Assembly: GCA_964356375.1 (NCBI GenBank)
Contig: CAYHGT010000003.1
Coordinates: 554 to 64,553 of the forward strand
Length of the DNA stretch: 64,000 nt
Direction of reading: 5' to 3'
Origin: an uncultured Candidatus Saccharibacteria bacterium
GTDB lineage: Bacteria; Patescibacteriota; Minisyncoccia; UBA6257; GWB1-50-10
Shown here: one piece after another, positions 19,219-59,685 of the stretch
How positions within the stretch are numbered: the stretch's first letter is position 1
Layout of the letters: every line of letters begins with the position of its first letter
Notes under the pieces: generated by a model
What the model was told of the DNA's origin: nothing
Database searches by the model: none
Seen by the model: only the letters and a program-made list of their open reading frames with translations
Program-made: the position numbers and the translations under genes

Positions 19219-20970
19219 TTATTTTTTTAGTCCCTTAATTTCCAAGATCTGCTCGGGGTTTGTGGTGATAATCTGGTCCTCGGTGTAGGAAGCAACAATC
19301 TTAATCGCAACGTGCTTTGCGCCCGCAAAGAAAAGCGCCTCACCAATGTTTGCCTCAAGAAGGAATCCTTTCTCGCCCTCGGTTAAGCTGAACGCGCCCG
19401 CAACAACATCAATAGCCGCTGGCGACTGCTTCATAAGAATTTGCGTTGCCGAGTTAGTGATAATTGGTTTGCCATATTCTGATTTCAAGAAATCTTCCAC
19501 GTCTTGCGTGATAGTTGTAATGCCGAGGTAATATTTGCGGGCGCGCTTCACAAGCCCAAAAAGGAATGACGCGCTGTCCTTAAACTTCATCATAATCCAC
19601 GCCTCATCAACGACGAGCACGCGTTGGCGAAGCTCTGCGCGAATAAGATTCCACACGAAATTCAATACGATATACATCGCAATCGGGCGAAGTTCTTCGT
19701 CTAAATCACGAATTGAAAAAACAATGAGGCGGTTTTTAAAATCAACATTCGTGGGTGCGTTCGTAAAGCCCGCGTATGTGCCGTGTACAAATTTTTCAAG
19801 ACGTTGCGCGAGCTGAAGCCCTCCCTTTGTGTTTTGTAAAATAACCTGAAGATCCTCAAGAAGTGGAGGCTCCATTTCTTTTGTCTGGCCGAAATTGTCT
19901 GCGGTAATATCGCGCGACGCGTATGTATCAGAAAGCGCCTTATCAAGGAGAGCGTCTTCTTCGGGCGATATTACACCAAGCATCAGTTTTATAAGACCCG
20001 AGAGGTTCAAGATATGGGACTTAAATACATCCGCAGGTTCATCCCCTTCTGGAATAATAGGAATATCAAACGGATTGATATGGCTTTGCGATGTGAGCGA
20101 AATTTTGAAATAACTTCCGCCAATAGCATTGGAAAGATTTTGGTACTCATTTTCTGGATCTATTACAATCACATTTGTGCCAGTCATAAGCGAGCGCAAA
20201 ATGAGAAGTTTTGCGGTGTATGATTTACCAGCGCCAGCTTTTGCAAATACCACCTGGTTTGCATTTTCAAGCGAGAATCGGTCAAAAATAACTAAGCTAT
20301 TGTTGTGCATGTTTACGCCATACATCACACCCTTGTCGGATGTAAGGTCCGGAGAGACGAACGGAAAAAGCGAAGAGGCTGGCCCAGAATTAAGCGGTGT
20401 GTGTGTTTCAAGCTTATCTGTGCAGAGCGGAAGGACCGAATCAAATCCCTCCATCTGCTTGAAAAGCGCGGGCTTTATATAGACCAACTTACTCTGAAGC
20501 ATTGATTCTAATTGGGTTTCAAGTTTTGCGAGCGCATCCAAGCTTTGTCCATAAAGTGTGATATATACCCCAACTTTGAAAAGCTTTTCTCTCGCTTGCA
20601 TTAATGAATCGCGCAAGCTCTCAATGTCTTGGTAGGCGGTCTCAAGCAGTGGATCGCGCACCATACCCTTTGTTGCTTTTTCGTCCATTTCCGACTGGAC
20701 CTGCGCCACCTTTTTTTGGAGGTTGCGTAAAGCCCCCGCAGTTTCCATGGGATGTATGAAAATAGAGATATCCATCATCTCGGAAAGATTGATGATGGGC
20801 GAGAACCAGCCGGAAGAAACGAAGCGCGGGTATGTGAAAATGAAAACAGTTTTTACGAAATAATCACCGAGTTTCAGATAGTTCGGACTCACTTCAAGTC
20901 CCGAGGGCGCAACAATGTTTGGAAGGTCTCCAGGCGACGGCTTATATGTTTGTGGAATTTGTATCTTCAT
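19219..20970 (-). CDS. virB4: VirB4/TrbE/CagE-family type IV secretion ATPase, C-terminal two-thirds (ATPase domain)
   Basis: Walker A VVFAKAGAGKSYTAKL, the VirB4 signature DPENEY (DPKGEY-like), Walker B VLVVDEAW, and the upstream YPRFVSSGWFSPIINL VirB4 core. Its ATG is supplied by the terminal motif of a mini-element (cttctaacgggATG). Confidence 0.85.
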   Translation of the reverse strand: MKIQIPQTYKPSPGDLPNIVAPSGLEVSPNYLKLGDYFVKTVFIFTYPRFVSSGWFSPIINLSEMMDISIFIHPMETAGALRNLQKKVAQVQSEMDEKATKGMVRDPLLETAYQDIESLRDSLMQAREKLFKVGVYITLYGQSLDALAKLETQLESMLQSKLVYIKPALFKQMEGFDSVLPLCTDKLETHTPLNSGPASSLFPFVSPDLTSDKGVMYGVNMHNNSLVIFDRFSLENANQVVFAKAGAGKSYTAKLLILRSLMTGTNVIVIDPENEYQNLSNAIGGSYFKISLTSQSHINPFDIPIIPEGDEPADVFKSHILNLSGLIKLMLGVISPEEDALLDKALSDTYASRDITADNFGQTKEMEPPLLEDLQVILQNTKGGLQLAQRLEKFVHGTYAGFTNAPTNVDFKNRLIVFSIRDLDEELRPIAMYIVLNFVWNLIRAELRQRVLVVDEAWIMMKFKDSASFLFGLVKRARKYYLGITTITQDVEDFLKSEYGKPIITNSATQILMKQSPAAIDVVAGAFSLTEGEKGFLLEANIGEALFFAGAKHVAIKIVASYTEDQIITTNPEQILEIKGLKK

Positions 20971-21103
20971 CCCGTTAGAAGCGATTAACGCTTATTGTTT
21001 GTTTGTGCGACCAATCAACTGCTGTTTCCAATTTTGAAATTTTTGCCACGCGCACGACCACCGCAGGTGGTCGGCTTCTAACGGGATTCATCCCGTTAAT
21101 TAG
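20968..21103. mobile_element. Miniature inverted-repeat element (CATCCCGTTAGAAG ... CTTCTAACGGGAT, plus an adjacent truncated second terminus) inserted between the two VirB4 halves; contains a 38-aa read-through ORF (minus strand, 20975-21091)
   Basis: 14-bp terminal inverted repeats. Outward reading of each end gives TAA-CGGG-ATG. The interior is an uninterrupted ATG-to-TAA frame of 117 nt (MNPVRSRPPAVVVRVAKISKLETAVDWSHKQTISVNRF). Confidence 0.45.
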
Positions 21104-21139
21104 TGTGTCCACATTTTTTGTTATAGTTTGGTTCATTCT

Positions 21140-21778
21140 TTATAATTTTTTGGTAAGCTCCATACCCTTTTTCTCGGTGAGTTGTGGATTGTACATATTG
21201 TAGAATAGTTCCACGATTTCATCGGTATCTAATTGGGTCACATGGAGACCAACCTGCTCTAAGCCGTCAGTTACCTCGGAAACGCGATGTTCAAGTTGTT
21301 CAAGCGCGGCTTGTTCCGATTGGTTTGCCTCAACTTTTGTTTGTTTTTTAAACATATCAAGAAGATTGAATGACGATTTTTGGATAGACGATCCCTCGTA
21401 GGGCACAATTACAAAAAATGTCTTATTAATGATAGCGTTTTGGTCAACAAACGAGCGGATAAACTCCGCGTATTCGGCAATCTGAATCTTCAAAAGCGCA
21501 TTTTCTTCCTGTTCTTCACGCTGTTTCATTTTTGCAAGATATGCATCCACATTCACTTTTCGCGAGTGAATGAAAAGCTGGATTGAAAAATCAATCGTAT
21601 TCAAAAAATTCTGGAAACTATTAAGTATGGTCACCTGCTCGGCCTCCGATTTAAGATCAAAATTAACGCCACCCACAATGAGTATTTTACGAATACCGCC
21701 ACTCTTCAAATATGCGACACCGTCGCGCACCTCTTTTATATCAACGAATTGTTGTGTGGGAATGCTTACTTCTGCCAT
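21140..21778 (-). CDS. virB4: VirB4-family ATPase, N-terminal domain (separate ORF)
   Basis: FVDIKEVRDGVAYLKSGGIRKILIVGGVNFDLKSEAEQ resembles the N-terminal segment of Gram-positive-type VirB4 (TcpF/Orf16/PrgJ-like). 212 + 583 aa is about full VirB4 length; it lies directly upstream of the ATPase ORF on the same strand. Confidence 0.5.
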   Translation of the reverse strand: MAEVSIPTQQFVDIKEVRDGVAYLKSGGIRKILIVGGVNFDLKSEAEQVTILNSFQNFLNTIDFSIQLFIHSRKVNVDAYLAKMKQREEQEENALLKIQIAEYAEFIRSFVDQNAIINKTFFVIVPYEGSSIQKSSFNLLDMFKKQTKVEANQSEQAALEQLEHRVSEVTDGLEQVGLHVTQLDTDEIVELFYNMYNPQLTEKKGMELTKKL

Positions 21779-21857
21779 ATGTCATTAGTATACCGCATTT
21801 TTCTACCTACGGTAAATCTTCCATGTCCGCCGATAGGCAGGCGCAGGGGAGACAACC

Positions 21858-22343
21858 TTAATAATCAACTCTCTTCGCTACCTTATGCTCCCCCGTTAAA
21901 TATGTCACAGATTGATATCGAGCGCCGCTCGCACTCTTGTGTTTGAGGATTTCTCCCGTGGTGATGCTCTGCGCAAGTGATTTAATTTTGTCCTGGATAC
22001 TTATATTGTTGCGCAACGCCTGGATTTTTTCCAAATCAGAGGTATCAAGCGTGGTCTGCTCCATCGCGCGTTGCCATGTATATCTGCGAGGCTTCCATAT
22101 AAAGGAGACCGCAGAAACCAAAATTGTTGGAAAGTCCTGACCGTTTATTTTCACAAACGCAAGCGCAATCGCGATACTGGCCAAAATAACAGAGATAAAT
22201 AACCACAAGAAAAACGTAAGCACATAAAAACCGGCAATAGAAATACCTCCCGCAACCGCGAGATAAAAAAATTGCATCAGCGTAAACGGGCCGACTATTT
22301 TCGCCTTCTCCTCAATAAATTGTGGGACTTGGAATTCTGCCAT
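21858..22343 (-). CDS. VirB3/PrgI-like small two-TM membrane protein
   Basis: 161 aa with two TM helices (FFYLAVAGGISIAGFYVLTFFLWLFISVILASIAIALAFV), immediately upstream of virB4 in the conserved virB3-virB4 order. Confidence 0.35.
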   Translation of the reverse strand: MAEFQVPQFIEEKAKIVGPFTLMQFFYLAVAGGISIAGFYVLTFFLWLFISVILASIAIALAFVKINGQDFPTILVSAVSFIWKPRRYTWQRAMEQTTLDTSDLEKIQALRNNISIQDKIKSLAQSITTGEILKHKSASGARYQSVTYLTGEHKVAKRVDY

Positions 22344-22357
22344 GTGTAAAAAGAAAA

Positions 22358-23590
22358 CTACTTTAAATGAACCACATTTCCTTCTAGTGCCGGACCGTTT
22401 TCTTTTGGCGCGTATTCAGCCCCTTTTGTCTGGGTATTAGGAAGTTTAGCGGGTACAGCGCTTATTGTGATGGGAACGGGCTGACTCGTTGTGGGTTTTA
22501 GGTTGCCACCCTCCGGAAGATGTTCAGCGGGGACATAGATTTTAGGTTGTTTGTCTGCAACCGAAATCTTCTTTTCTTCCCTTTTTTTGTTGAATATGGA
22601 TTTTAGTGACCATCTCCTTCCCTCTTCTTTTACAGATTCATTTAGCGCTGACGTATCAACGACCGTAGGAGTGGAGGCCGTCTCTGGTGCTTTTGATTGC
22701 AATGCATCAATTGAGCCCGCGATACTCGGTGTGACAACAGGACTTATTTTTTCCGTCTCGTTGTCGTATGTTGTAGGTCGTTTGTCGTTGGTTGAGATAT
22801 TTTGCAACGCTTCCAAATGAATGAGACCCTCGGGAGTTTGCGAAAGCGGAGAAGACGATGAGCGGATTTCGCTATAATGCACAACTTTTTCCTCGTCTTT
22901 CTTCTTTTCAAATGGCCAACTGAACGCATGCGGGGTTTCAATTTTTACTTTCACAGCCGGCTTCGCCTCCGTTGATTCGGGAGAAGATGCAAACATATTG
23001 AACGGAATTGGCGACCTCCTCTTTTCTGTGCGCTCCGCAGGCTTCTCAAAGAATGAACCGCTCTTTTGGAGCACCATCGGACCACCTTCTTCATGGATAG
23101 GCAATGAGACAGGTTCTGTGTCCTCGGTTCCTATCGCGCTTACTTGTATTTTTTCGCCAATTAGCCCCACTGATTCTACCTTTGTTTCCGTCGCCACCTC
23201 TTCATTGTTCGGCTGTGTGGTTGTTTTTTCACTTTCTTCAGTTGCTTCCGTTTCGTCACCGTACGGATTATACGCCTCTTCAAGCTCCTCTTTTACCGAA
23301 TCAAAAATACGCGCATTAATTTCATTCGCAAGCGCGCGTGAATGTTCGTGGTTTAGAAATAGTCGTTCGCCTATCTCATGCGTAAGTTCGCTTTTTGCCA
23401 AGAAGCCCATAAGTACAAACGCAATGAGTGCTCCAAGTTCCCACTGTTTTTCCTCGTCAAGATAGTGTTCCCTACCGATGTTTTCCAACATCTTTTTTCC
23501 TTGTTGTGAATCAACCGCATCACGAAGTTCTTCGTGGAGCGCGGTATAACGATTAGTGAATGCTGTTTTTGTGGGGAATGTGAATGCCAT
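22358..23590 (-). CDS. Hypothetical acidic, low-complexity (E/T/P/K-rich) protein
   Basis: 410-aa ORF with a structured N-terminal part of about 90 aa, then a long disordered region; no motif recognised. Confidence 0.45.
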   Translation of the reverse strand: MAFTFPTKTAFTNRYTALHEELRDAVDSQQGKKMLENIGREHYLDEEKQWELGALIAFVLMGFLAKSELTHEIGERLFLNHEHSRALANEINARIFDSVKEELEEAYNPYGDETEATEESEKTTTQPNNEEVATETKVESVGLIGEKIQVSAIGTEDTEPVSLPIHEEGGPMVLQKSGSFFEKPAERTEKRRSPIPFNMFASSPESTEAKPAVKVKIETPHAFSWPFEKKKDEEKVVHYSEIRSSSSPLSQTPEGLIHLEALQNISTNDKRPTTYDNETEKISPVVTPSIAGSIDALQSKAPETASTPTVVDTSALNESVKEEGRRWSLKSIFNKKREEKKISVADKQPKIYVPAEHLPEGGNLKPTTSQPVPITISAVPAKLPNTQTKGAEYAPKENGPALEGNVVHLK

Positions 23591-23594
23591 TTTA

Positions 23595-25838
23595 TTATGT
23601 AATTATTTTTGGTCCTTGCGCATTCCGTTCAGCGTCTTCTTTCGCCCTGCGCGCGCGTTCTTCTTCTCTTGATTGCGCAGCCGCCTTAGCGCGAATATTC
23701 GCGATCGGGGTGTTTTCGGTGAATCCCTCAGTAATAATCGGACTTGTAGTTTTTTCTTTTGGAGTATTTGGTTGTTTTTTATTCTCTTTTTCTTTTTTCT
23801 CAGCTTCCGCGATTTCTTTTTTCGCGTCATTCCAAAGATCCGTGATTTTTTCTAGCGGGTTTTCAGAGAACCACCCGTCGTTCTTAGCATTCCTTGCCGC
23901 AATAGTAGCTTCCACAAGGTCTTTTGCGCGCTCCTCCCACTGCGCTTTTGTTTTTGGTTTCTGCCCCTCTATTTTCTGCCACTTCGCGGTCTGCTCCTTT
24001 GCGGCAGTAATTTTTGAATCCAAATCATGTTTCATTCCGGGCGCGGGTATATATGCTTTGTTTTTAATATCCTCGTCTTTCTTTGCGGTCATAGCCACAA
24101 GCTGTTTCTCCCATTCCGTTCTTGCTGGTGATGCTTCTGCCGAAGTCTTTCTCATCTTAGAGAGTTCTTTGTATGTAGCGTCTCGTTGCGCCTCAAAGAA
24201 CGAGGTCTTGAGACCTTTTGCGAGGAGCATTTCGCGTTTCAACTCAAACTCCTCAGCTTGTTTCATAAGACCCTCTTCGGTTTCCGGAAGTTTTGTTTTC
24301 TTTCTCATCTCGTCCTCCAATTTCTCAATATTTTTCTTCATGTCGCTTACATCAACGCCAGCCTTCTCAAGCTCTTCCAGTTTCTTAAGCTTCTTCTCAT
24401 GGTTTTTCTCATCTTCTTCTAACGATGTTGTTTCTTTCGCTTTCTTCGCTTCGCTAATCTTGGTTTCTACACCCTTTTCTCCGCCCGTAAGTACTGCCCA
24501 CGCGAGAGAGCCTAGCGAGTCCGGTTTCGTGGAGGCGCCATCCACCGTCTGGAGTCCTTGACCCGCAACACGTATCATGGCTTGTAGAGGTGCGCGCACT
24601 GGTGTCATTGCAAGCATTGCCGCCTTTCCAAACAGATTTTTTGGTTTGTACTCGCCCACCGTCTTTATACCCGTACCAAAACGAAGCGCTTGTCGCCCAA
24701 TTGCCCCCCCCACCCGAGATTGGGCAATTTTTTGACCAAATGTTTTTGCGCCCTTGCCTGCATAATTCTTCGCAATCGCGCCAAGTCCTTGAAGTCTATC
24801 AATACCCGCAGCTGCCGCGACGATGCCCATTTTTTGTGCAGCAATAAGTCCGCCAATCAAGATTCCGCTAAGAACAGTCATTTGTGAACCGATAACCATG
24901 ATGTTTTGCAATGCGCCCATTTTGAAAAACTCATTGGTCGTATTCACTTTACCAAGCGCCTCCGCGCTTCCAAGCGCAAGATAGAGAAAAAACATAAGTA
25001 TAGGGGCAAAGAATACCTGTTCCATGAACTTGCTCCACCATTTAGAGAACTTATCCGCCTGTCCTGGAATTACCCAAAAGAGCCACGTAATTGGCGCAAG
25101 GATGAGAAGAATGGAGAGCCACACAAACCGTACGAGAAGCATGATAGCAAAAATAAACATAATGATGGTAGCGATAAGATTAAATCCAGTGATAAAAAAG
25201 ATTTCCGCGATGGACGCCATAACCGCAGTTGAAAGACTCGTGCCCACACCGGCTTCATCCGCAGGATTTGGTGGTAAGGGGTCATTTCCACTATTTAACA
25301 TAAATTGTTGAGAATTAAATGCGCCCGCCAACTTGTTTACCACACCAAACATCCCCCCTTCGTTTATTTTGCTCATAAAGAAATTGGTGATTACATTGGA
25401 GAAATCAATAAATACCCCCCCAATAGCGAGGCTGAAGTTCACGAGGATTGCGGCTGCGATGAGTTTTGGAAGCAATTTTTTATACCCGTATTCTTCAGAG
25501 CCGACGATGGTGGCAAAAGCGATGATAATCATTGCGAGCACGAATCCAAGGTTCGCAAGGTCGCGCGTAATTGTCCAACCAACACCCACAAGCTGGTTTA
25601 CACCCGTGTTGGCAACTGTGGTATTGAGCGTCATCATAAATTCAACGAGCGCGCCCGCGAGCATAAACGCAAGTGAGATAAAGAAGTTATAGAGATAGAT
25701 AATAAATTTTGCGGAGTAGGATACTATATCAGCAAGCATCTGATCCGCGAATGCCGCGTGCGCAAATTGAGGCACAATAAGTCCCACGAGGATAAGCGCG
25801 CCGAGACCCGAAAGCATTTTTTTATTGCGTAGCTTCAT
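23595..25838 (-). CDS. Large polytopic membrane protein, VirB6/TrbL-like, with a lysine/glutamate-rich C-terminal tail
   Basis: Signal-like N-terminus, at least eight hydrophobic helices over about 400 aa, then a roughly 300-aa charged coiled-coil-like tail. The position within the T4SS-like gene block fits the enlarged VirB6 homologs of Gram-positive systems. Confidence 0.45.
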   Translation of the reverse strand: MKLRNKKMLSGLGALILVGLIVPQFAHAAFADQMLADIVSYSAKFIIYLYNFFISLAFMLAGALVEFMMTLNTTVANTGVNQLVGVGWTITRDLANLGFVLAMIIIAFATIVGSEEYGYKKLLPKLIAAAILVNFSLAIGGVFIDFSNVITNFFMSKINEGGMFGVVNKLAGAFNSQQFMLNSGNDPLPPNPADEAGVGTSLSTAVMASIAEIFFITGFNLIATIIMFIFAIMLLVRFVWLSILLILAPITWLFWVIPGQADKFSKWWSKFMEQVFFAPILMFFLYLALGSAEALGKVNTTNEFFKMGALQNIMVIGSQMTVLSGILIGGLIAAQKMGIVAAAAGIDRLQGLGAIAKNYAGKGAKTFGQKIAQSRVGGAIGRQALRFGTGIKTVGEYKPKNLFGKAAMLAMTPVRAPLQAMIRVAGQGLQTVDGASTKPDSLGSLAWAVLTGGEKGVETKISEAKKAKETTSLEEDEKNHEKKLKKLEELEKAGVDVSDMKKNIEKLEDEMRKKTKLPETEEGLMKQAEEFELKREMLLAKGLKTSFFEAQRDATYKELSKMRKTSAEASPARTEWEKQLVAMTAKKDEDIKNKAYIPAPGMKHDLDSKITAAKEQTAKWQKIEGQKPKTKAQWEERAKDLVEATIAARNAKNDGWFSENPLEKITDLWNDAKKEIAEAEKKEKENKKQPNTPKEKTTSPIITEGFTENTPIANIRAKAAAQSREEERARRAKEDAERNAQGPKIIT

Positions 25839-25846
25839 TATGCGAT

Positions 25847-27958
25847 TTAATACTGCACGCGTAGTCTACCCGTTGTCGTCACATTCACTGTTTTTGATAC
25901 AACCCCACCAGCACCATAACAAGAGAGCGTGTAGGTAGATAATGAACCGGGGTCGCTAAAAAGGCGAACATTCTCAGAGCCCGAAGTTGCTCTCAGTCCA
26001 TCCCAATCGCCAGATGCGGTACATGAACTTGCGCCCGTGGTAGACCAAGTAATTTTCACAAGTCCTCCAACATGTACACGTGCGGGAGTCCGAGTGAGCG
26101 TAAGTGTTGGAATTGTAGATGTGCTGGTCCCACCACCAACTGGCACCGCCGGACACATATATGGGGCGGGTGCCACGGTGCTGGTGCACGCATTAAGTTG
26201 TGAGGTTACGTCAGTCGATGCGAATGCGGTTTTATCAGCGGTGAGCTTATTTATCATATCGTTTATTGCGGTTGCATATTGTTGAACCTCCGTATAAAGA
26301 GCGAATACATCTTCTGGGGTAGTTTCGGGATCGTTTAGTGTCGCAATCATGTCAATCAGTCGTTGTTTGAGGGTATTAAGCAGTGAATTTGCGCCAGTAA
26401 TATCCGAGGAAAGTGATATGATAGCGGAGAACAAATTCGCGGTTGTAGGACACTGCGCCTTTTGTGCGGTCTTTTGCGCCTCGCACGCCGAAAGAAGCGA
26501 CAGGTCTGACTGAGACACAGACGGCAAGGCCGTAACATCGGCAACCAAAGGAGCAAGCACATCATTTAACGCGGCGAGTGCGCTTTCAGCAAGACTAAGC
26601 GCGGTTGAGGTAGAAACAAGTGCTGGATTCGTTGAAGTGGTGGTCGTGTCTAAAAGTTCCGAGCCATACTCAAGATAAATCATATCGCGTTTGCACTTTT
26701 CAGTTTGTGCGGTGGTTACGTTTGGACCTGTTGGCATGCTTGTGCAATATGGTTCGGGTGCTTTGTTTGTAGAACTATTACTGAATATGTTTTTGGATGC
26801 GTCACTAAGACCCTTTACACCTTCTTTTGCGAGGCGATTAAAGGCCGCATCAAATATTGCGGAAAGATAAGGAGTAAGGTCGTCGGCGCTTACGAGCGCG
26901 TCCTTGTCATTGCTACCAAGCGAATTGCCGAGTATTGTGCCAAGTGTTTCTCCTGGTGTTGTAATTTTCTGGCCTTCTGCCTTACATACAATTTTTGTGA
27001 TTATGTCTTCAAGTGGTAATGCTGGCACTATTTTTCCTCGCGCGACCGATTCGGATGGTGGCTCGCTCGGGTCTATAAGAGAGTTATCATTACCAGCGAG
27101 GAATGTTGCAATAACCGTTTCGGGGCCAAGGTCATTATCAGCATCTCCAAGTGAGCTCCTTCCGATGACGGACCACGTGATACACATTTTTGTAGACAAA
27201 AATCCTTTAGTGCCAGCCGTCTCAGTTTTTAACGCATCAGTTTTTGCACCCTTCCTACGCGAAAGATCATCAATTGCCAAAAGTTGAAGTCCATATTTAT
27301 TATTTTGGAGGCTATTCACTTCTTGATATGCAAGCCAACTCCCATTTTCAAAATTATCAGCAAATGCGCGTACATTACCTATCACTTTTGAGAGTGTGCA
27401 ACTTGCGGCCTTGGAAAGTTTAGGCGGTGTTTGCAGGTTTAGTTGTAATTGAATGCCGAGTTTTGCGTCACACAGTTGTCCCGCACCGATTTCTTGGAGC
27501 GTATCTCCGAGCGCGGCGTCTGCGCTATCCCTAAGCACCGAGTTGAAATTAGTAACGAATTTAGGGTTCCCTCCCGTTCCACTTATCCAAGCGACTACAT
27601 CATCGGTGAGCCTATCAAGTAGGTGCTTTTTAAACTTATTAAATGCAATTTTAATGAGCATCTTCCAGAGAGCTTTTAAACATTCTTCTACGTTATCCCA
27701 AAACTTTTGCCAAGAAGTCCTGTGATCAAGCGCCGCAACCGCTGGATCTGGCGCTAAGGAGCTCAGTTTGCCAGAAACTAGTGCGGCAAGCCATTTAGCC
27801 GCCTTTGTTATTCCACATTTTTTGAATACCTCCTGCGCCCCCCCATCCGCGCTTGCAGCGGCCGCGTTCGCTCTATCTGGGAGCACAAAATACAACGAAT
27901 TCGCAAGAATTATTATAGAAAGAAGCGAGGCGATAGTTTTTGTTGTAGATGGACGCAT
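25847..27958 (-). CDS. Large secreted protein with C-terminal Ig/PKD-like beta-sandwich domain
   Basis: Signal peptide (IASLLSIIILANSLYFV...ANA); Cys-containing; C-terminal roughly 100 aa rich in T/S/G beta-strand pattern. Confidence 0.45.
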   Translation of the reverse strand: MRPSTTKTIASLLSIIILANSLYFVLPDRANAAAASADGGAQEVFKKCGITKAAKWLAALVSGKLSSLAPDPAVAALDHRTSWQKFWDNVEECLKALWKMLIKIAFNKFKKHLLDRLTDDVVAWISGTGGNPKFVTNFNSVLRDSADAALGDTLQEIGAGQLCDAKLGIQLQLNLQTPPKLSKAASCTLSKVIGNVRAFADNFENGSWLAYQEVNSLQNNKYGLQLLAIDDLSRRKGAKTDALKTETAGTKGFLSTKMCITWSVIGRSSLGDADNDLGPETVIATFLAGNDNSLIDPSEPPSESVARGKIVPALPLEDIITKIVCKAEGQKITTPGETLGTILGNSLGSNDKDALVSADDLTPYLSAIFDAAFNRLAKEGVKGLSDASKNIFSNSSTNKAPEPYCTSMPTGPNVTTAQTEKCKRDMIYLEYGSELLDTTTTSTNPALVSTSTALSLAESALAALNDVLAPLVADVTALPSVSQSDLSLLSACEAQKTAQKAQCPTTANLFSAIISLSSDITGANSLLNTLKQRLIDMIATLNDPETTPEDVFALYTEVQQYATAINDMINKLTADKTAFASTDVTSQLNACTSTVAPAPYMCPAVPVGGGTSTSTIPTLTLTRTPARVHVGGLVKITWSTTGASSCTASGDWDGLRATSGSENVRLFSDPGSLSTYTLSCYGAGGVVSKTVNVTTTGRLRVQY

Positions 27959-33664: not shown

Positions 33665-33771
33665 TCAATCCCGTTAGAGGCAACTGACCCCACCAGTTTC
33701 ATCTATTGTGCCAGCAGGAGCTGTGTGTTGATATCCCAGAAGCGTGGTAGACTCAAGCCTCTAACGGGATC
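33665..33771. repeat. Inverted-repeat mini-element copy A (TCAATCCCGTTAGAGG ... GCCTCTAACGGGATC, about 107 bp)
   Basis: 13-15-bp perfect terminal inverted repeats around a non-conserved spacer of about 80 bp; homologous termini occur at 48436-48537 and 59366-59469. Confidence 0.55.
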
Positions 33772-33789
33772 AAACGCAACAGGATTATT

Positions 33790-35628: not shown

Positions 35629-35790
35629 TAGGGGTTAGGGATAAGGGGCAAGGGGATAGTCCATGGAAGGGGGGCGAGGGTGTATAGTAATGGAATGTGG
35701 GGGGAACGAAACAAAAAACCGCATGTGCGGTTTTTTGTTCCTAATCCCTAATCCCTAACCCCTTTCCCCTAATCACTATACCCTACTCTT
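35629..35790. repeat. G-rich arm / terminator hairpin / C-rich arm composite (GGGGTTAGGGATAAGGGG ... aaaaaaccgcatgtgcggtttttt ... CCTAATCCCTAATCCCTAACCCC)
   Basis: TTAGGG(A)-like heptamer repeats on one side of a canonical intrinsic terminator, and their reverse complement on the other side. Located between convergent genes. Related copies at 31725-31760, 41646-41711, 44717-44868 and 49857-49936. Confidence 0.6.
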
Positions 35791-39868: not shown

Positions 39869-40765
39869 ATGACCGATGTTGAGAAGTATTTTCACGAATA
39901 TCTGGATTATTTAGAGATTGAGAAGAATCGCTCGCTTAAAACGCGCGAGAACTACGCGCACTATTTGGAGGTTTTTCTAAAAGAAACGGGTGTGAAAAAA
40001 CCGAGCGATATCACGGACGCGGTGGTTCGTTCGTTCCGTATTACGCTCGCCCGACGCGAGATGAAAAAAATTACACAGAACTATTACGTAATCGCCCTCC
40101 GCAATTTTTTGAAATATTTAGTGCGACGCAGGATAAGGTCCTTGGCACCCGAGACCATAGAACTTCCGAAGGTTGCGCGTCGCGATATTGAGGTGCTGGA
40201 CTATAAGGAGCTTGAGCGCTTACTCGTGGCTCCCAAGGGCGACTCGCTTCGCGTGCTCCGCGACAGGGCTATACTTGAAGTTTTATTTTCCACGGGCCTC
40301 CGCGTTTCGGAAATCTGTAAACTTCCCCGCTATCTTGATTTAGCGCGCGGAGAAATGTCTGTGCGCGGGAAGGGTGAGAAGATTCGCGTGGTTTTCTTAT
40401 CCGATAGTTCAAAAACAGCCATAAAAGAATATTTAAAAAAACGGACCGATGCGGACGAGGCGCTTTTCATCGGTGTCGCAAAAAGCGGAAAACCGCTGGG
40501 AAAAATAGATTCACGCACAATTCAGCGTCTCGTAGATTCCTACGCACGAAAAGCAGGTATCGCAAAGCGCGTGCATCCCCACGAACTGCGCCACTCGTTT
40601 GCGACCGACCTCTTAATAAATGGTGCCGACCTCCGTTCTGTCCAAGAGCTTTTGGGCCACGCAAATATTTCTACCACGCAGGTTTACACGCATCTTACAA
40701 ATAAAGAGCTTCATGAGGTTCATGAAGCGTTCCACGGAAGGCGCAGGAAAAAAGATGACGAATAA
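39869..40765 (+). CDS. xerC: Tyrosine site-specific recombinase XerC/XerD family
   Basis: R...HxxR...Y catalytic pattern (HELRHSFATDLL, LLGHANISTTQVYTHL); 298 aa. Confidence 0.88.
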   Translation: MTDVEKYFHEYLDYLEIEKNRSLKTRENYAHYLEVFLKETGVKKPSDITDAVVRSFRITLARREMKKITQNYYVIALRNFLKYLVRRRIRSLAPETIELPKVARRDIEVLDYKELERLLVAPKGDSLRVLRDRAILEVLFSTGLRVSEICKLPRYLDLARGEMSVRGKGEKIRVVFLSDSSKTAIKEYLKKRTDADEALFIGVAKSGKPLGKIDSRTIQRLVDSYARKAGIAKRVHPHELRHSFATDLLINGADLRSVQELLGHANISTTQVYTHLTNKELHEVHEAFHGRRRKKDDE

Positions 40766-41728: not shown

Positions 41729-42085
41729 TTAGAGCGCGCCACCACCTGCGGGGGCAGTGAGTGTCACACCCAAGAAGCTCCTGACAATCTCCGGAATTGC
41801 AAACGCCAAGAGGCCAACCGCGATACCGACAATTGCGTAGGTAAGCATATGCTTTGCCTCATCAATTTTTGCAGTGTCACCTCCCGCGGTTAAATATTTG
41901 AATCCAGCCATAAGGATAAATATTGTTGCCACGAGGAAGAAGATAGCCATGACCCACTGCATAAAAAGCGTAACTTTTTGCCAAATGCCAGCAAGATCGG
42001 TCGGCGCGTTGCCTACAACAGCAGCAGACGCAAGCATGGGAATTAACACAAGTCCGATTATTGCGTATTTCGTAAGGTTTTTCAT
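41729..42085 (-). CDS. VirB2/TrbC-like pilin (paralog 1)
   Basis: Signal peptide followed by two hydrophobic helices separated by a short G..D.AK loop (FILMAGFKYLTAGGDTAKIDEAKHMLTYAIVGIAVGLL); 118 aa. Confidence 0.55.
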   Translation of the reverse strand: MKNLTKYAIIGLVLIPMLASAAVVGNAPTDLAGIWQKVTLFMQWVMAIFFLVATIFILMAGFKYLTAGGDTAKIDEAKHMLTYAIVGIAVGLLAFAIPEIVRSFLGVTLTAPAGGGAL

Positions 42086-42127
42086 AAGATAATTATTGAA
42101 TAAATAAAAGTATCAAACATCCGACCT

Positions 42128-42532
42128 TTACTGACTAAGGAAATTCGTAATAATCAGTCCGATTCCTTTAGCAAGTAAAAGTATAGCATACCCCACAACC
42201 GTCCACAATAATGCGCTCCTCGCCGTGGTGAGTTTTTCTGGCTCTCCCGCAGACGTCATAAAGAGATATGCCGCCCAGATAACCATCGCGGCTGCAACGG
42301 GTGTTGCAAACACAATAAGTCCATCAATAATTTTTCCAATGAGGTCGTTTATGTTGCTCACGCCAAGTGGATTCGGCAGGGTGACCGATGTGACCGCACC
42401 CACTGGCAATGTTTGTGCGCTTGCATGTACCGCAACGAAAAGCATCGCTAGCATAAGCACAAAGAAGATTTTTTTTGTATTATTTTTCATCCCATTAGAA
42501 GTATAAGTTTTCATCCCGTTAAAGTTTTTCAT
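42128..42532 (-). CDS. VirB2/TrbC-like pilin (paralog 2)
   Basis: Same architecture (MVIWAAYLFMTSAGEPEKLTTARSALLWTVVGYAILLL). N-terminus MKNFNGMKTYTSNGMKNN has two ATGs, each formed by a CATCCC(A/G)TTA(G/A)A element terminus. Confidence 0.55.
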   Translation of the reverse strand: MKNFNGMKTYTSNGMKNNTKKIFFVLMLAMLFVAVHASAQTLPVGAVTSVTLPNPLGVSNINDLIGKIIDGLIVFATPVAAAMVIWAAYLFMTSAGEPEKLTTARSALLWTVVGYAILLLAKGIGLIITNFLSQ

Positions 42533-42586
42533 ATGTTGATAATTTGTTTTCTACTATTGTTTATTTTTACTATAATTTTCATTATA

Positions 42587-42676
42587 CAAGTTTGTCTTCC
42601 TTCGGTAGATGTCTCATACCTTTGGTAGATCTACCGTAGGTATGACCGTAGGGACATAAAACTCTAACGGGACTTC
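42587..42676. repeat. Roughly 90-bp direct repeat copy 1 (...tttgtcttccttcggtagatgtctcatacctttggtagatctaccgtaggtatgaccgtagggacataaaactctaacgggactt)
   Basis: Near-identical copy at 43180-43269. Ends with the CTCTAACGGGA mini-element terminus; contains the GGTAGATCTACC palindrome. Confidence 0.7.
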
Positions 42677-42682
42677 GTTTTT

Positions 42683-43144
42683 TTATGTACACGTAATAGT
42701 TGCCCACGGGGCCGACACGCCCGATTGCACGAATACAGAGAGTACAGTATTCACGATTGTCCACGCGGCAACTGCAATCGCAATGCCTATAATAGCACTT
42801 GTCATAATACTCTTTGCATCAGTTAGGGTTTTCTCATTTCCTCCCGCAGCCATCATACGAATTGCACCCCACGCAATCATACCCGTTCCGATGGAGAAAG
42901 CGAGCTGAAATCCGAATGTAATGATGTTGCGCATTACAATCATTGCATCACATAAACTACACGGACCAATTGGTCCGCCGTCTGGACCAATTGCATCACC
43001 ACTACACTTGGCGCCTTCCCAAATATTTATTGCCTGCGCCTGATGCATTGGCACAAAAAGCGCGAGACCTATAAAGATAAGAAGCGAGAGCGCGACGATT
43101 TGTTTCGTCCCGTTAAAGTTTTTATAAATTAGTTTTTTTATCAT
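42683..43144 (-). CDS. VirB2/TrbC-like pilin (paralog 3)
   Basis: Same architecture (MIAWGAIRMMAAGGNEKTLTDAKSIMTSAIIGIAIAVAA) plus a Cys-rich insert. N-terminus ...KNFNGTKQ retains the element-derived motif with ATG changed to ACG. Confidence 0.55.
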   Translation of the reverse strand: MIKKLIYKNFNGTKQIVALSLLIFIGLALFVPMHQAQAINIWEGAKCSGDAIGPDGGPIGPCSLCDAMIVMRNIITFGFQLAFSIGTGMIAWGAIRMMAAGGNEKTLTDAKSIMTSAIIGIAIAVAAWTIVNTVLSVFVQSGVSAPWATITCT

Positions 43145-43179
43145 TGATGATTTCTTATTTTTCTACGATTTCCGCCCTA

Positions 43180-43269
43180 CAAATTTGTCTTCCTTCGGTA
43201 GATGTCTCATACCTTTGGTAGATCTACCGTAGGTATGACCGTAGGGACATAAAACTCTAACGGGACTTA
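43180..43269. repeat. Roughly 90-bp direct repeat copy 2
   Basis: See copy 1 (42587-42676). Confidence 0.7.
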
Positions 43270-44697: not shown

Positions 44698-44780
44698 GGT
44701 CTCATTTATTATAACAGGGAATGGGGGTAGGGCATAGGGGTTGAGTGGGGCTTAGGGAAAAGGGCTTAGGGGTTAGAAAG

Positions 44781-44805
44781 AAAAAAACCGCATACGCGGT
44801 TTTTG
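44781..44805. terminator. Bidirectional intrinsic terminator (aaaaaaaccgcatacgcggttttt) embedded in a G-arm/C-arm composite repeat
   Basis: Near-identical to the hairpin at 35714-35738; between the solute-binding protein region and the gyrA 3' end. Confidence 0.6.
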
Positions 44806-44862
44806 TCTACGCTTATTTTGCCACACAGCTACTTTTTTTCCCTAAACCCTTACCCCTATTCC

Positions 44863-58175: not shown

Positions 58176-58607
58176 CTATTTATCCGACGGTGTTAGCGTC
58201 TTACCCGTGATGAGCTTGAAGAGTCCACCGCAGAAGATGAGCTTGTAAGCCCACTTGAGAAGTAACCACGCATGGTCCAAAATCCATACAATGGCAAAGC
58301 AGACGCAAAACCCAATACCGAGGAGAATGATGACAATCAAAATGGTGACCGCGCCAGTCAAAAAGATTGGCCAGAGCGCACCGATAATAAATGGTTTCCC
58401 ATCGTTCTCCCAAACACCACACATAAAACAGCAAAGGAGTTTTGGAAAGTCAGAGTCGATATCAGGGTCATCATACATTTTAACGAGAGCGAAATATACG
58501 TAGACTTGTCCAATGAATGCATAGATGAGAATCGCAAGAATTGCGAAGATTGGAAAAAGAACGTGATGATGCGACGGATGGAGCAGAATGTCCAATAGCG
58601 AGTTCAT
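58176..58607 (-). CDS. Small three-to-four-TM membrane protein (paralog B)
   Basis: MNSLLDILLHPSHHHVLFPIFAILAILIYAF... C-terminal ...GKTLTPSDK. Shares the N-terminal (MxNSLL..H..VL..I.AIL) and C-terminal (GK.LTP) motifs with paralog A. Confidence 0.4.
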   Translation of the reverse strand: MNSLLDILLHPSHHHVLFPIFAILAILIYAFIGQVYVYFALVKMYDDPDIDSDFPKLLCCFMCGVWENDGKPFIIGALWPIFLTGAVTILIVIILLGIGFCVCFAIVWILDHAWLLLKWAYKLIFCGGLFKLITGKTLTPSDK

Positions 58608-59350
58608 TGAATCCTCCTAATGAATGAGCGACCCATCAGTGGGTCTTTTGCATTTTTTGATTTCTTTTCTGGTGCGAGAACAATGAGACGATGTGTAAAG
58701 CTCGTGTACCATCTCCGCGCACTCCAGAGGCCGTAGGTATAGACCGCGAATTTATCAGTTGAGTTATCCACATCAAAGCAGAATTCAACGAGCCCAACCT
58801 TTCCATTCGCGTAAAGGAACGGGAATAGGGTAGAGCATCCGTCGGAACTCATAAGCAATGATTTGTGCGTTCGCACAAGCTCAACAATTTGATGTTCGCT
58901 CAAGCAAAGTACGCGCGGATTTTTGTGCTTCTTCTTGCACAAAATCTGCGTAAACATTTGTCTGAACGTGGCATCGCACTTCAATTCGTATACATTGGCG
59001 AGCGCAGTTTTGGTAGGCTTTTTACTCGGTGTGTCAGACAGCAACTTGATGTCGCCGTATTTGATATCGAGCAGACTCTTCTTGATGAAAATGTCGTCCG
59101 CGTCTTTGATGACCACGCTACCATCGCAGGCCGGAATGGCCAGCTCCGATAATGAGATGAGCGAGAGCAGTTCAATCTTTTTCACGGCTTTCTCAGCGCG
59201 TGATTGTAGGAGCTTGCCAATCGTGGCAGACAAAGCGACTCGTAAGACGTTCATAGTGCTCCTCCTAAATGATGAAAGTATGTTGTTCTCGTTCCTCGCA
59301 CGATGCGGGGTCTCGAGATGTTTTTTAAAATTCTGCACACATTTTAGCAC
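58604..59350 (-). CDS. Hypothetical protein (248 aa), translationally coupled (ATGA overlap) to the membrane-protein pair
   Basis: ORF with 4-nt overlap to the downstream gene; no recognised domain. Confidence 0.35.
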   Translation of the reverse strand: MLKCVQNFKKHLETPHRARNENNILSSFRRSTMNVLRVALSATIGKLLQSRAEKAVKKIELLSLISLSELAIPACDGSVVIKDADDIFIKKSLLDIKYGDIKLLSDTPSKKPTKTALANVYELKCDATFRQMFTQILCKKKHKNPRVLCLSEHQIVELVRTHKSLLMSSDGCSTLFPFLYANGKVGLVEFCFDVDNSTDKFAVYTYGLWSARRWYTSFTHRLIVLAPEKKSKNAKDPLMGRSFIRRIQ

Positions 59351-59365
59351 AGAAAATTTGCTTCG

Positions 59366-59469
59366 TCAATCCCGTTAGAGATGTCAGAATATCAAAATAC
59401 AAAAGATGCGGTCATCTCAAGCTGTGTTAATAAATGAATGTCTAAAAGACTAATATCTCTAACGGGATC
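59366..59469. repeat. Inverted-repeat mini-element copy C (TCAATCCCGTTAGAGATG ... ATCTCTAACGGGATCAA)
   Basis: Perfect 14-bp terminal inverted repeats; 104 bp; located in the promoter region of the 58604-59350 operon. Confidence 0.55.
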
Positions 59470-59685
59470 AACCCTACTTTTTAAGCTTGTGTGGGTTGTG
59501 ATTCGGACATGCCCACCCACCAACCCGAGTAATACCAAACAAACATTGCGTTTTCATTTTAAGTAGCGCGTTAATAATTTCAAATGATTAGGTTGGTGGG
59601 TGGGCACGCTTTGTTTGAACAGCGTTCGGGAATAGTCTTTGTACCCTCTCCTCCTTCGCTCACACGAGCTTCGGAAGGACTGCGG

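Follow-up and report, generated by a model that had tools for sequence, protein, structure and literature searches.

The short inverted-repeat elements found upstream of genes in the window (the whole 64-kb stretch of DNA analysed here) most probably belong to a family of miniature, non-autonomous DNA transposons (MITE-like). Their matched ends, flanking duplications, presence or absence at the same site in relatives, and movement as whole elements are observed directly, as is their position at start codons and -35 boxes. On the combined evidence of duplication, polymorphism, matched ends and mobility, the elements fit the published definition of MITEs (PMC3184786). The general plan is Y-CCCGTTAGA-nnn ... 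nnn-TCTAACGGG-R, a terminal inverted repeat of 13–14 bp around a core of 70–130 nt, with a total size of 90–160 bp. According to the ORF lists, no element contains an ORF of 60 aa or more, as expected of small, transposase-free MITEs. Such elements are widespread in uncultivated groundwater bacteria, and the cross-phylum family is apparently undescribed. Literature searches with the arm sequence returned only unrelated primers and shRNAs, and those on MITEs or insertion sequences in Patescibacteria found nothing relevant to these elements.

The motif CCCGTTAGAG occurs 16 times in the window with at most one mismatch (2.2 expected; none of 100 shuffles reaches 16), and these matches form eight convergent arm pairs spaced 94–157 bp apart (Table 1). 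The original prediction had described three copies, at 33665-33771, 48436-48537 and 59366-59469, and a separate subfamily at gene starts; all three are present at those places and all copies are intergenic as proposed, but they belong to a single set of eight pairs. GAG versus GAAG fails as a subfamily marker because arm positions 10–12 vary freely and covary with the opposite arm. The predicted perfect inverted repeat of 13–15 bp holds at 14 bp for the 33665 copy (33668-33681/33757-33770) and the 59366 copy, whereas the 48436 copy has 11 bp, and the outer TCAA that had been counted into the repeat is in fact a 4-bp direct repeat. Interiors described as unrelated are so in the window, except for the cores of the 42515 and 43109 elements, which are 91% identical over 97 nt, and the 3' halves of 44598 and 51519; the core of the 33670 copy is not AT-rich as had been stated. 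Two solo arms accompany the pairs: a remnant, CCCGTTAAT, at 21092-21100 just past the VirB4 element, and a variant, CCCATTAGAA, at 42491-42500 near the likely true start of the pilin gene behind the 42515 element.

Table 1. Inverted-repeat elements of the window and the duplications that flank them.
Feature	Position	Strand	Details
Element upstream of DksA/TraR-like gene, T-CCCGTTAGAGGC ... GCCTCTAACGGG-A	33669..33769, arm pair 33670-33768	-	14-bp perfect inverted repeat
Duplication copy 1, DksA site	33665..33668		TCAA on +, TTGA on gene strand; first four bases of -35 TTGACA
Duplication copy 2, DksA site	33770..33773		TCAA
Element between divergent MBL-fold (Lactamase_B_3) and S1-domain genes	48439..48534, arm pair 48440-48533	-	11-bp repeat
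Element upstream of ORF 58604-59350	59370..59467, arm pair 59371-59466	-	TCAA at 59366-59369 and 59468-59471
Element abutting VirB4/TraC-like ATPase start codon	20970..21086, arm pair 20971-21085	-	TTCA at 20966-20969 and 21087-21090
157-bp element upstream of T4SS-pilin gene	42515..42671	-	arm pair
156-bp element upstream of next pilin gene	43109..43264	-	arm pair
Element abutting solute-binding protein (SBP) gene start codon	44598..44694	-	proximal arm degenerate: CCTGTTAGAA
Element abutting FtsH start codon (CTTCTAACGGG then ATG)	51519..51615	+	arm pair

In gene content the window is typical of Patescibacteria (CPR): it encodes PNPase, GyrA, FtsH, TopA, DprA, a YifB/ComM-like ATPase, a T4SS-like VirB4/PrgI/pilin set and an Xer-type recombinase, and genes identical to those of the window were found in Hainich groundwater assemblies. 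The T4SS-like genes (VirB4/TraC-like ATPase, TraC-like, PrgI and TrbL-like, with three VirB2/TrbC-type pilin genes) lie at 19219-27958 and 41729-43144; several of them have elements in front, and in lineage L176 the elements have other arms. The window also holds repeats of other kinds. Intrinsic-terminator hairpins (AAAAACCGC...GCGGTTTTT) at 35630-35763 and 44700-44870, 3' of pnp and of gyrA, lie between telomere-like tracts, with GGGTTAGGG / GGGGTAAGGG upstream and CCCTAA / CCCTAACCCC downstream, and these tracts make up another, long-range inverted repeat around the terminator. A perfect 16-bp inverted repeat with a 65-nt loop, TGCCCACCCACCAACC ... GGTTGGTGGGTGGGCA, at 59510-59606 between topA and the 59370-59467 element belongs to a different sequence family from the studied elements, and a 24-nt imperfect inverted repeat (AAATCCCGAACTAAGTTCTGTGGG / CCCACAGAACCTAATTAAGGATTT) around 124 nt at 1372-1543 shares only ATCCCG with them. 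A tRNA-Ile with the anticodon TAT (UAU), unusual for bacteria, is encoded at 53504-53576 and adjoins tRNA-Val(TAC).

Each element end begins with a Y/R pair, continues with the invariant CCCGTTAGA/TCTAACGGG and closes with three variable, matched pairs. These three positions beyond the 9-nt core are variable in sequence and complementary in 85–92% of elements, with background levels from position 13. Among 140 elements, terminal pairs 2–14 are complementary in 85–100%, the terminal repeat expected of a MITE, and a formal count detects covariation at arm pairs 2, 12, 13 and 14 (none of 500 shuffles reaches the observed score). G.U pairs in the arms are no commoner than other mismatches, and this, together with the covarying pairs, indicates that the constraint is the identity of two DNA ends, not RNA pairing.

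A search for the exact pattern in one genome per species gave at least 120 loci, and nearly all of them, among the matches listed, lie in MAGs of Patescibacteria, Omnitrophota, Planctomycetota and Desulfobacterota. The chance level for 18 fixed bases and 31 spacings is about 270 matches in 596 Gb; most of the matches are considered real because almost all fall in a few uncultivated phyla and have a common flank structure. Arms in these other genomes nearly always form convergent pairs, with a continuous spacing of 20–270 nt. A relaxed metagenome scan, which fixed only ATGAAT-CCCG...CGGG-ATGAA, gave canonical arms in 63 of 121 matches and revealed further, mutually matched arm families (CCCGTACGAA, CCCGCACCTTCT, CCCGCTAGAC and CCCGATAGTGAC). 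The same CCCG termini and ATGAAT flanks in other arm families, for example CCCGTACGAA and CCCGCACCTTCT, count in favour of the transposon reading. Termini are YCCCG in all arm families, and subterminal repeats are asymmetric, as in the GCCGCGGTC subfamily, where one side is offset by 4 nt. Viral contigs gave only 10 matches, mostly from one phage locus without the typical flanks.

Several loci in this collection depart from the simple plan. Nested or tandem insertions, which have one 6-bp junction in common, support the transposon reading; at L038 5893-6284, three tandem elements are joined by common ATGAAT junctions, and the middle one carries compensated variant arms, CCCGTAGTAG / CACTACGGG. 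Canonical arms directly enclose a tRNA-Thr CGT (L074 4972-5126) and a tRNA-Val GAC (L101 432-538), and these two loci with a tRNA gene as core weigh against the MITE-like interpretation; after the tRNA-Thr element, the tRNA 3' part is partially duplicated, together with the arm, at L074 5060-5126. Two identical 92-bp elements in opposite orientation surround a 2.7-kb segment encoding one 686-aa secreted protein at L027 2167-5033 (also in L021 and L106). The repeated unit runs past the arms there and thus belongs to a larger repeat.

The elements are flanked by a short target duplication. Both flanks read R-T-n-n-A-Y in 142 non-redundant elements of the unbiased genome set, where the arm-adjoining base belongs to the inverted repeat (Y...R), and the central dinucleotide of the flanking 6-mers is repeated directly in 95 of the 142 and inverted in 10. 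In a pooled set of 218 elements, which includes metagenome loci chosen for their ATGAAT flanks, an exact 4-bp repeat flanks the element, taken as Y-CCCG...CGGG-R, in 157 cases, compared with 30 of 218 in a control that matches each flank with one from another element. The duplicated tetranucleotide of this set is TNNA, mostly TGAA (TGAA 104, TAAA 15, TGGA 11, TGAG 7 and TTGA 6), a flanking duplication as expected of MITEs. Two of the three originally predicted copies have the TCAA duplication, and the third (48439..48534) lacks it; the window copies without a duplication (42515, 43109, 44598, 48440 and 51519) count against the transposon reading.

Bacterial MITEs have been inferred to be mobile from filled and empty sites in relatives (PMC3184786), and the same pattern was found here in syntenic relatives retrieved through FtsH and ComM homologues. 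The DksA site is filled in the window and in L263, where the element sits between xTTGAT and ATTGACA, and empty in L264 and L265, each with a single TTGACA -35 box (ComM identity to the window: 91% in L263, 88% in L264 and 80% in L265). L134, with an FtsH 95% identical in amino acids, has an empty FtsH site reading TATAGT-N19-ATGAAAAC, and the element is also absent in L132, L133 and L135. L131 carries at that place a 94-bp element that differs from the window's, in the arrangement TATAGT-N19-ATGAAAT[94-bp element]ATGAAATC, with the 7-bp repeat ATGAAAT; one duplication of 5 bp also occurs in L131. The SBP site, filled in the window, reads TATAAT-N7-ATG without an element in L131, L132 and L133, and L264 and L265 have no element at the VirB4 site (AAAAA then ATGAAGATAC). 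The SBP and MBL/S1 sites together are empty in L131–L133 and L135; the MBL/S1 element itself is absent in L132, L133 and L135 and present in L134 with a decaying right arm. Likewise, the syntenic regions of L131, L132, L133 and L135 have no arms at the position of the pilin-upstream 42515 element, and L132, L133, L135 and L264 are entirely free of arms over 17–22 kb each. Empty sites (DksA, FtsH, SBP, VirB4 and MBL/S1) carry a single copy of the duplicated tetranucleotide. The original prediction had suggested a search for empty sites in relatives and named a lack of insertion polymorphism as the outcome that would speak against a mobile element; since polymorphism is seen at these five sites, that outcome did not occur.

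Mobility is also evident from the cores. Twelve element pairs, including L063 3752/6471 on one contig, have cores 73–88% identical between unrelated flanks, which shows that the whole element moves. Such core sharing between loci is expected of MITEs; in the window it is seen only for 42515/43109 and partly for 44598/51519. Most window cores are unrelated, unlike those of a recently amplified MITE family, and this counts against the transposon reading. So do two orthologous filled sites (window/L263 and window/L134), where arms and outer flanks are conserved while cores are unalignable and four-fold degenerate sites are only ~50% identical. Stem pairs 11–12 have changed on both sides between the window and L263. 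Either the stem is selected in place, or the sites were refilled independently.

Insertions are registered on the expression signals of the neighbouring gene. One flank, and never both, coincides exactly with the start of an ORF of at least 50 aa in 69 of the 142 elements. The typical gene-oriented structure is [-10 box]-N5-7-ATGRAY, then CCCGTTAGA...TCTAACGGG, then RTGRAn-ORF. The upstream flank copy occupies the position expected of a leaderless start, and many elements lie in ATGA overlaps, with the TGA of the upstream copy serving as the stop codon of the preceding gene. Where the terminal pair is C...G the rebuilt start codon is GTG, so the last base of the element provides the first base of the start codon. 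The 33669-33769 and 59370-59467 copies used TTGA instead, and the duplicated TTGA plus CA or CG forms the -35 hexamer at the element edge. Consensus scans place promoter-like TTGACA-17-TATTTT at 33668-33640 (minus strand) beside the DksA-upstream element and TTGACG-17-TAAAAT at 59369-59341, where the -35 TTGACG adjoins the edge of the 59370..59467 element. The gene-proximal end of the 48439..48534 element, which has no recognisable duplication, adjoins the -35 box of TTGAAA-17-TATACT (48438-48410). The SBP gene in L131 2835-2935, L132 5225-5285 and L133 5151-5212 has TATAAT exactly 7 nt 5' of its ATG and no Shine-Dalgarno sequence, which suggests that leaderless mRNAs are common in the lineage.

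On the transposon reading, an element inserts at a TNNA tetranucleotide and duplicates it. The usual target in Patescibacteria is the TGAA of ATGAA, at a leaderless start codon or an ATGA stop/start overlap, and that of the originally predicted copies the TTGA of a -35 box. The terminal purine together with the duplicated TGAA or TTGA rebuilds ATG/GTG or TTGACA at the element edge, so that the downstream gene regains its start codon or -35 box, and the upstream duplication copy retains the old stop or start. Movement would be by cut-and-paste through a trans-acting DDE-type transposase; piggyBac/IS1380-type elements likewise have a 4-bp TNNA duplication and CCC termini. Only insertions that leave the neighbouring gene expressible or translatable would survive; candidate routes are looping-out of the insert by the hairpin, and coupling through a short bridging frame from the old ATG to the distal-arm TAA, 4 nt before the rebuilt ATG.

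The strongest competitor to the transposon reading is that the arms form an RNA element, a long-range stem in the 5' leader or intercistronic RNA that masks the start codon and could serve as an RNase III-type processing or stabilising site, with the DNA features secondary; we regard this as unlikely. All copies fold to a closed stem (z-scores of -2.4 to -5.6), and the elements are polar, with the subterminal motif YCTRYY beside the gene-proximal arm in 29 oriented elements versus 3 reversed. Element length is 1 modulo 3 in 36 of 69 oriented elements, and in 15 of 49 the reading frame opened by the upstream ATG continues as far as the distal-arm TAA, which precedes the real ATG by 4 nt. The arms retained at orthologous sites where neutral sites are saturated also favour an RNA function. 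Against it stand the missing excess of G.U pairs, the flanking direct repeats and empty sites, which an RNA element leaves unexplained, and the three originally predicted copies, which lie upstream of the predicted -35 box and would therefore not be in the transcript of the downstream gene. Rfam scans at gathering thresholds of the window and 18 element-bearing loci matched only tRNAs and no structured-RNA family. A translated leader peptide or an SD-like arm motif was considered and set aside as not general, as the open frame occurs in a subset only. The RNA reading thus probably describes what filters or exapts insertions, not their nature.

The suggestion that the termini are operator half-sites is not supported as the primary explanation, since duplications and presence/absence polymorphism do not fit a regulator site. 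In its fullest form, a regulon of promoters bracketed by inverted half-sites for a DNA-looping transcription factor, it draws on the promoter-proximal location of all copies, on spacings of 94–99, 115 and 156–157 bp that approximate 9, 11 and 15 helical turns, and on the strict Watson-Crick identity of both ends, which fits dimeric DNA recognition. Such a factor, however, predicts no duplication, no filled/empty polymorphism, no tandem insertions and no conserved cores at unrelated loci. The spacing in other genomes is continuous from ~20 to 270 nt, and the genes downstream have no function in common (FtsH, pilins, SBP, DksA and VirB4), making this a very improbable account.

Equally little can be said for folded single-strand recombination sites, either attC-like or REP/REPIN sequences moved by an HUH (RAYT) enzyme. 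Integron attC sites resemble the elements in their short inverted GTT/AAC cores, variable centre, length of 60–160 bp and covarying stem pairs, but the elements read GTTAGAG ... CTCTAAC on both strands, opposite to the attC order R'' (RYYYAAC) ... R' (GTTRRRY). The original prediction was therefore right that these are not classical integron sites. There is no integron integrase, attI or cassette array at these loci, the elements are separated by syntenic housekeeping genes that element-free relatives carry too, and no GTAG-type REP head was found. Neither attC x attI recombination nor HUH transposition is known to make a 4-bp flanking duplication.

Invertible promoters (invertons) flipped by a site-specific recombinase are the least credible alternative. 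Inverted repeats do bracket ~100 bp in front of genes, the window encodes a tyrosine recombinase (39869-40765) and some cores contain -10-like boxes. However, the DksA locus in 10 independent assemblies and the FtsH locus in 6, of which 3 span the MBL/S1 element too, unchanged, show a single orientation with zero differences, although a rare inversion could escape these 16 consensus assemblies, which cover three elements. The promoter-like -35/-10 boxes lie outside the 33669-33769, 48439-48534 and 59370-59467 elements in consensus scans, and the recombinase gene is present in element-free relatives.

That recombinase, which matches Phage_integrase domains and is the only tyrosine recombinase of the window, had been named as an example of a possible cognate recombinase (the nearby XerC/D); its place beside the S15 gene also in element-free relatives argues otherwise. 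Matching arms that enclose a transposase were found nowhere in 1.8 Mb of element-bearing DNA, which counts against the MITE-like interpretation. The search covered matching 12-mers 0.4–4 kb apart with a matching duplication in all retrieved loci; the only candidates for an autonomous partner, L162 and L176, each proved to be two separate small elements. No piggyBac- or IS1380-like transposase adjoins or lies near any element in the retrieved loci, and tblastn with the ISEcp1 (IS1380) transposase, a distant query for a small sample, gave no match at E<=1 in the retrieved loci and the window. We also rejected as the enzyme the 222-aa HTH protein encoded at 53884-54552, which has only an HTH match in Pfam, returned nothing in a PDB sequence search and has single-copy, syntenic homologues; no elements adjoin those homologues in other genomes. 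Its N-terminus carries the HTH, and its C-terminus is LAGLIDADG-like by eye only. LAGLIDADG enzymes leave 4-nt overhangs. The protein has 248 homologues in Patescibacteria, its counterpart in the close relative L134 is just 33% identical, and direct repeats of ~100 bp (53588-53709 and 54650-54737, within 53588-54737) surround the tRNA-Val and this ORF.

Among bacterial MITE-like repeats, Correia/CREE (Neisseria), Nezha (cyanobacteria), RUP and ERIC resemble the elements in a size of ~100–160 bp, terminal inverted repeats, a duplication and the lack of a transposase gene. These MITEs also form a long hairpin, are found mainly 5' of genes and in some cases contribute promoter parts (PMC3184786). 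In contrast, the duplication of the elements studied here is TNNA (4 bp) rather than TA, the same termini occur in several phyla with highly diverse cores, insertion is registered on a start codon, stop/start overlap or -35 box with the signal rebuilt, and no cognate insertion sequence is known. The piggyBac transposons target TTAA, with the rare variants TAAA, TCAA and GTAA, and have short terminal repeats with a conserved CCC start that otherwise diverge between families; their prokaryotic relatives are the IS1380 family (PMC10813416). The 4-bp T-N-N-A duplication, the CCC ends and the asymmetric subterminal repeats of our elements are similar, and the combination that marks IS1380/piggyBac-type elements, a 4–5 bp AT-rich T..A duplication with CC(C)-starting termini, was found. 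The left end of ISEcp1 is CCTAGATTCTACG, compared with CCCGTTAGAAG in the elements. Their target is TGAA/TAAA/TTGA and not TTAA, and we draw the link to piggyBac/IS1380 as an analogy of end architecture only, with no claim of membership. Mycobacterial MIRUs are intercistronic repeats whose small ORFs overlap the stop and start codons of their neighbours. They share with the elements a position between operon genes and a short frame bridging the upstream stop/start to the downstream start, which by analogy may keep translational coupling; unlike the elements, MIRUs repeat directly in tandem and have neither terminal inverted repeats nor target duplications.

A broader interpretation is possible, if doubtful: that the elements form a previously undescribed, cross-phylum superfamily of signal-regenerating hairpin transposons, spanning Patescibacteria, Omnitrophota, Planctomycetota, Desulfobacterota and others, which has a joined-end palindrome with a 4-nt stagger and reshapes initiation regions. 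Joined ends would make the 24-bp palindrome TCTAACGGGR-TNNA-YCCCGTTAGA, which has the architecture of a 4-nt-stagger cut site and would permit piggyBac-like seamless excision and reinsertion. The cutter might be a prokaryotic piggyBac/IS1380-like enzyme or a nuclease leaving 4-nt overhangs. If this holds, homing to ATGA overlaps and leaderless starts would repeatedly turn leaderless or coupled genes into structured-leader genes, and the elements would have a major part in shaping where translation starts in streamlined genomes.

If the transposon reading is confirmed, it would explain many intergenic palindromes of Patescibacteria and neighbouring uncultivated phyla, of which this window alone has 8 in 64 kb. 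The elements would supply an annotation rule for true start codons, which lie directly after ...TCTAACGGG, and point to a transposition enzyme with a TNNA, start-codon-registered target. They are also a possible marker of horizontal transfer among groundwater lineages. The filled and empty sites would offer a natural experiment, in which one version of a gene has a 100-nt hairpin between its promoter, or the upstream stop codon, and its start codon, and another version of the same gene lacks it.
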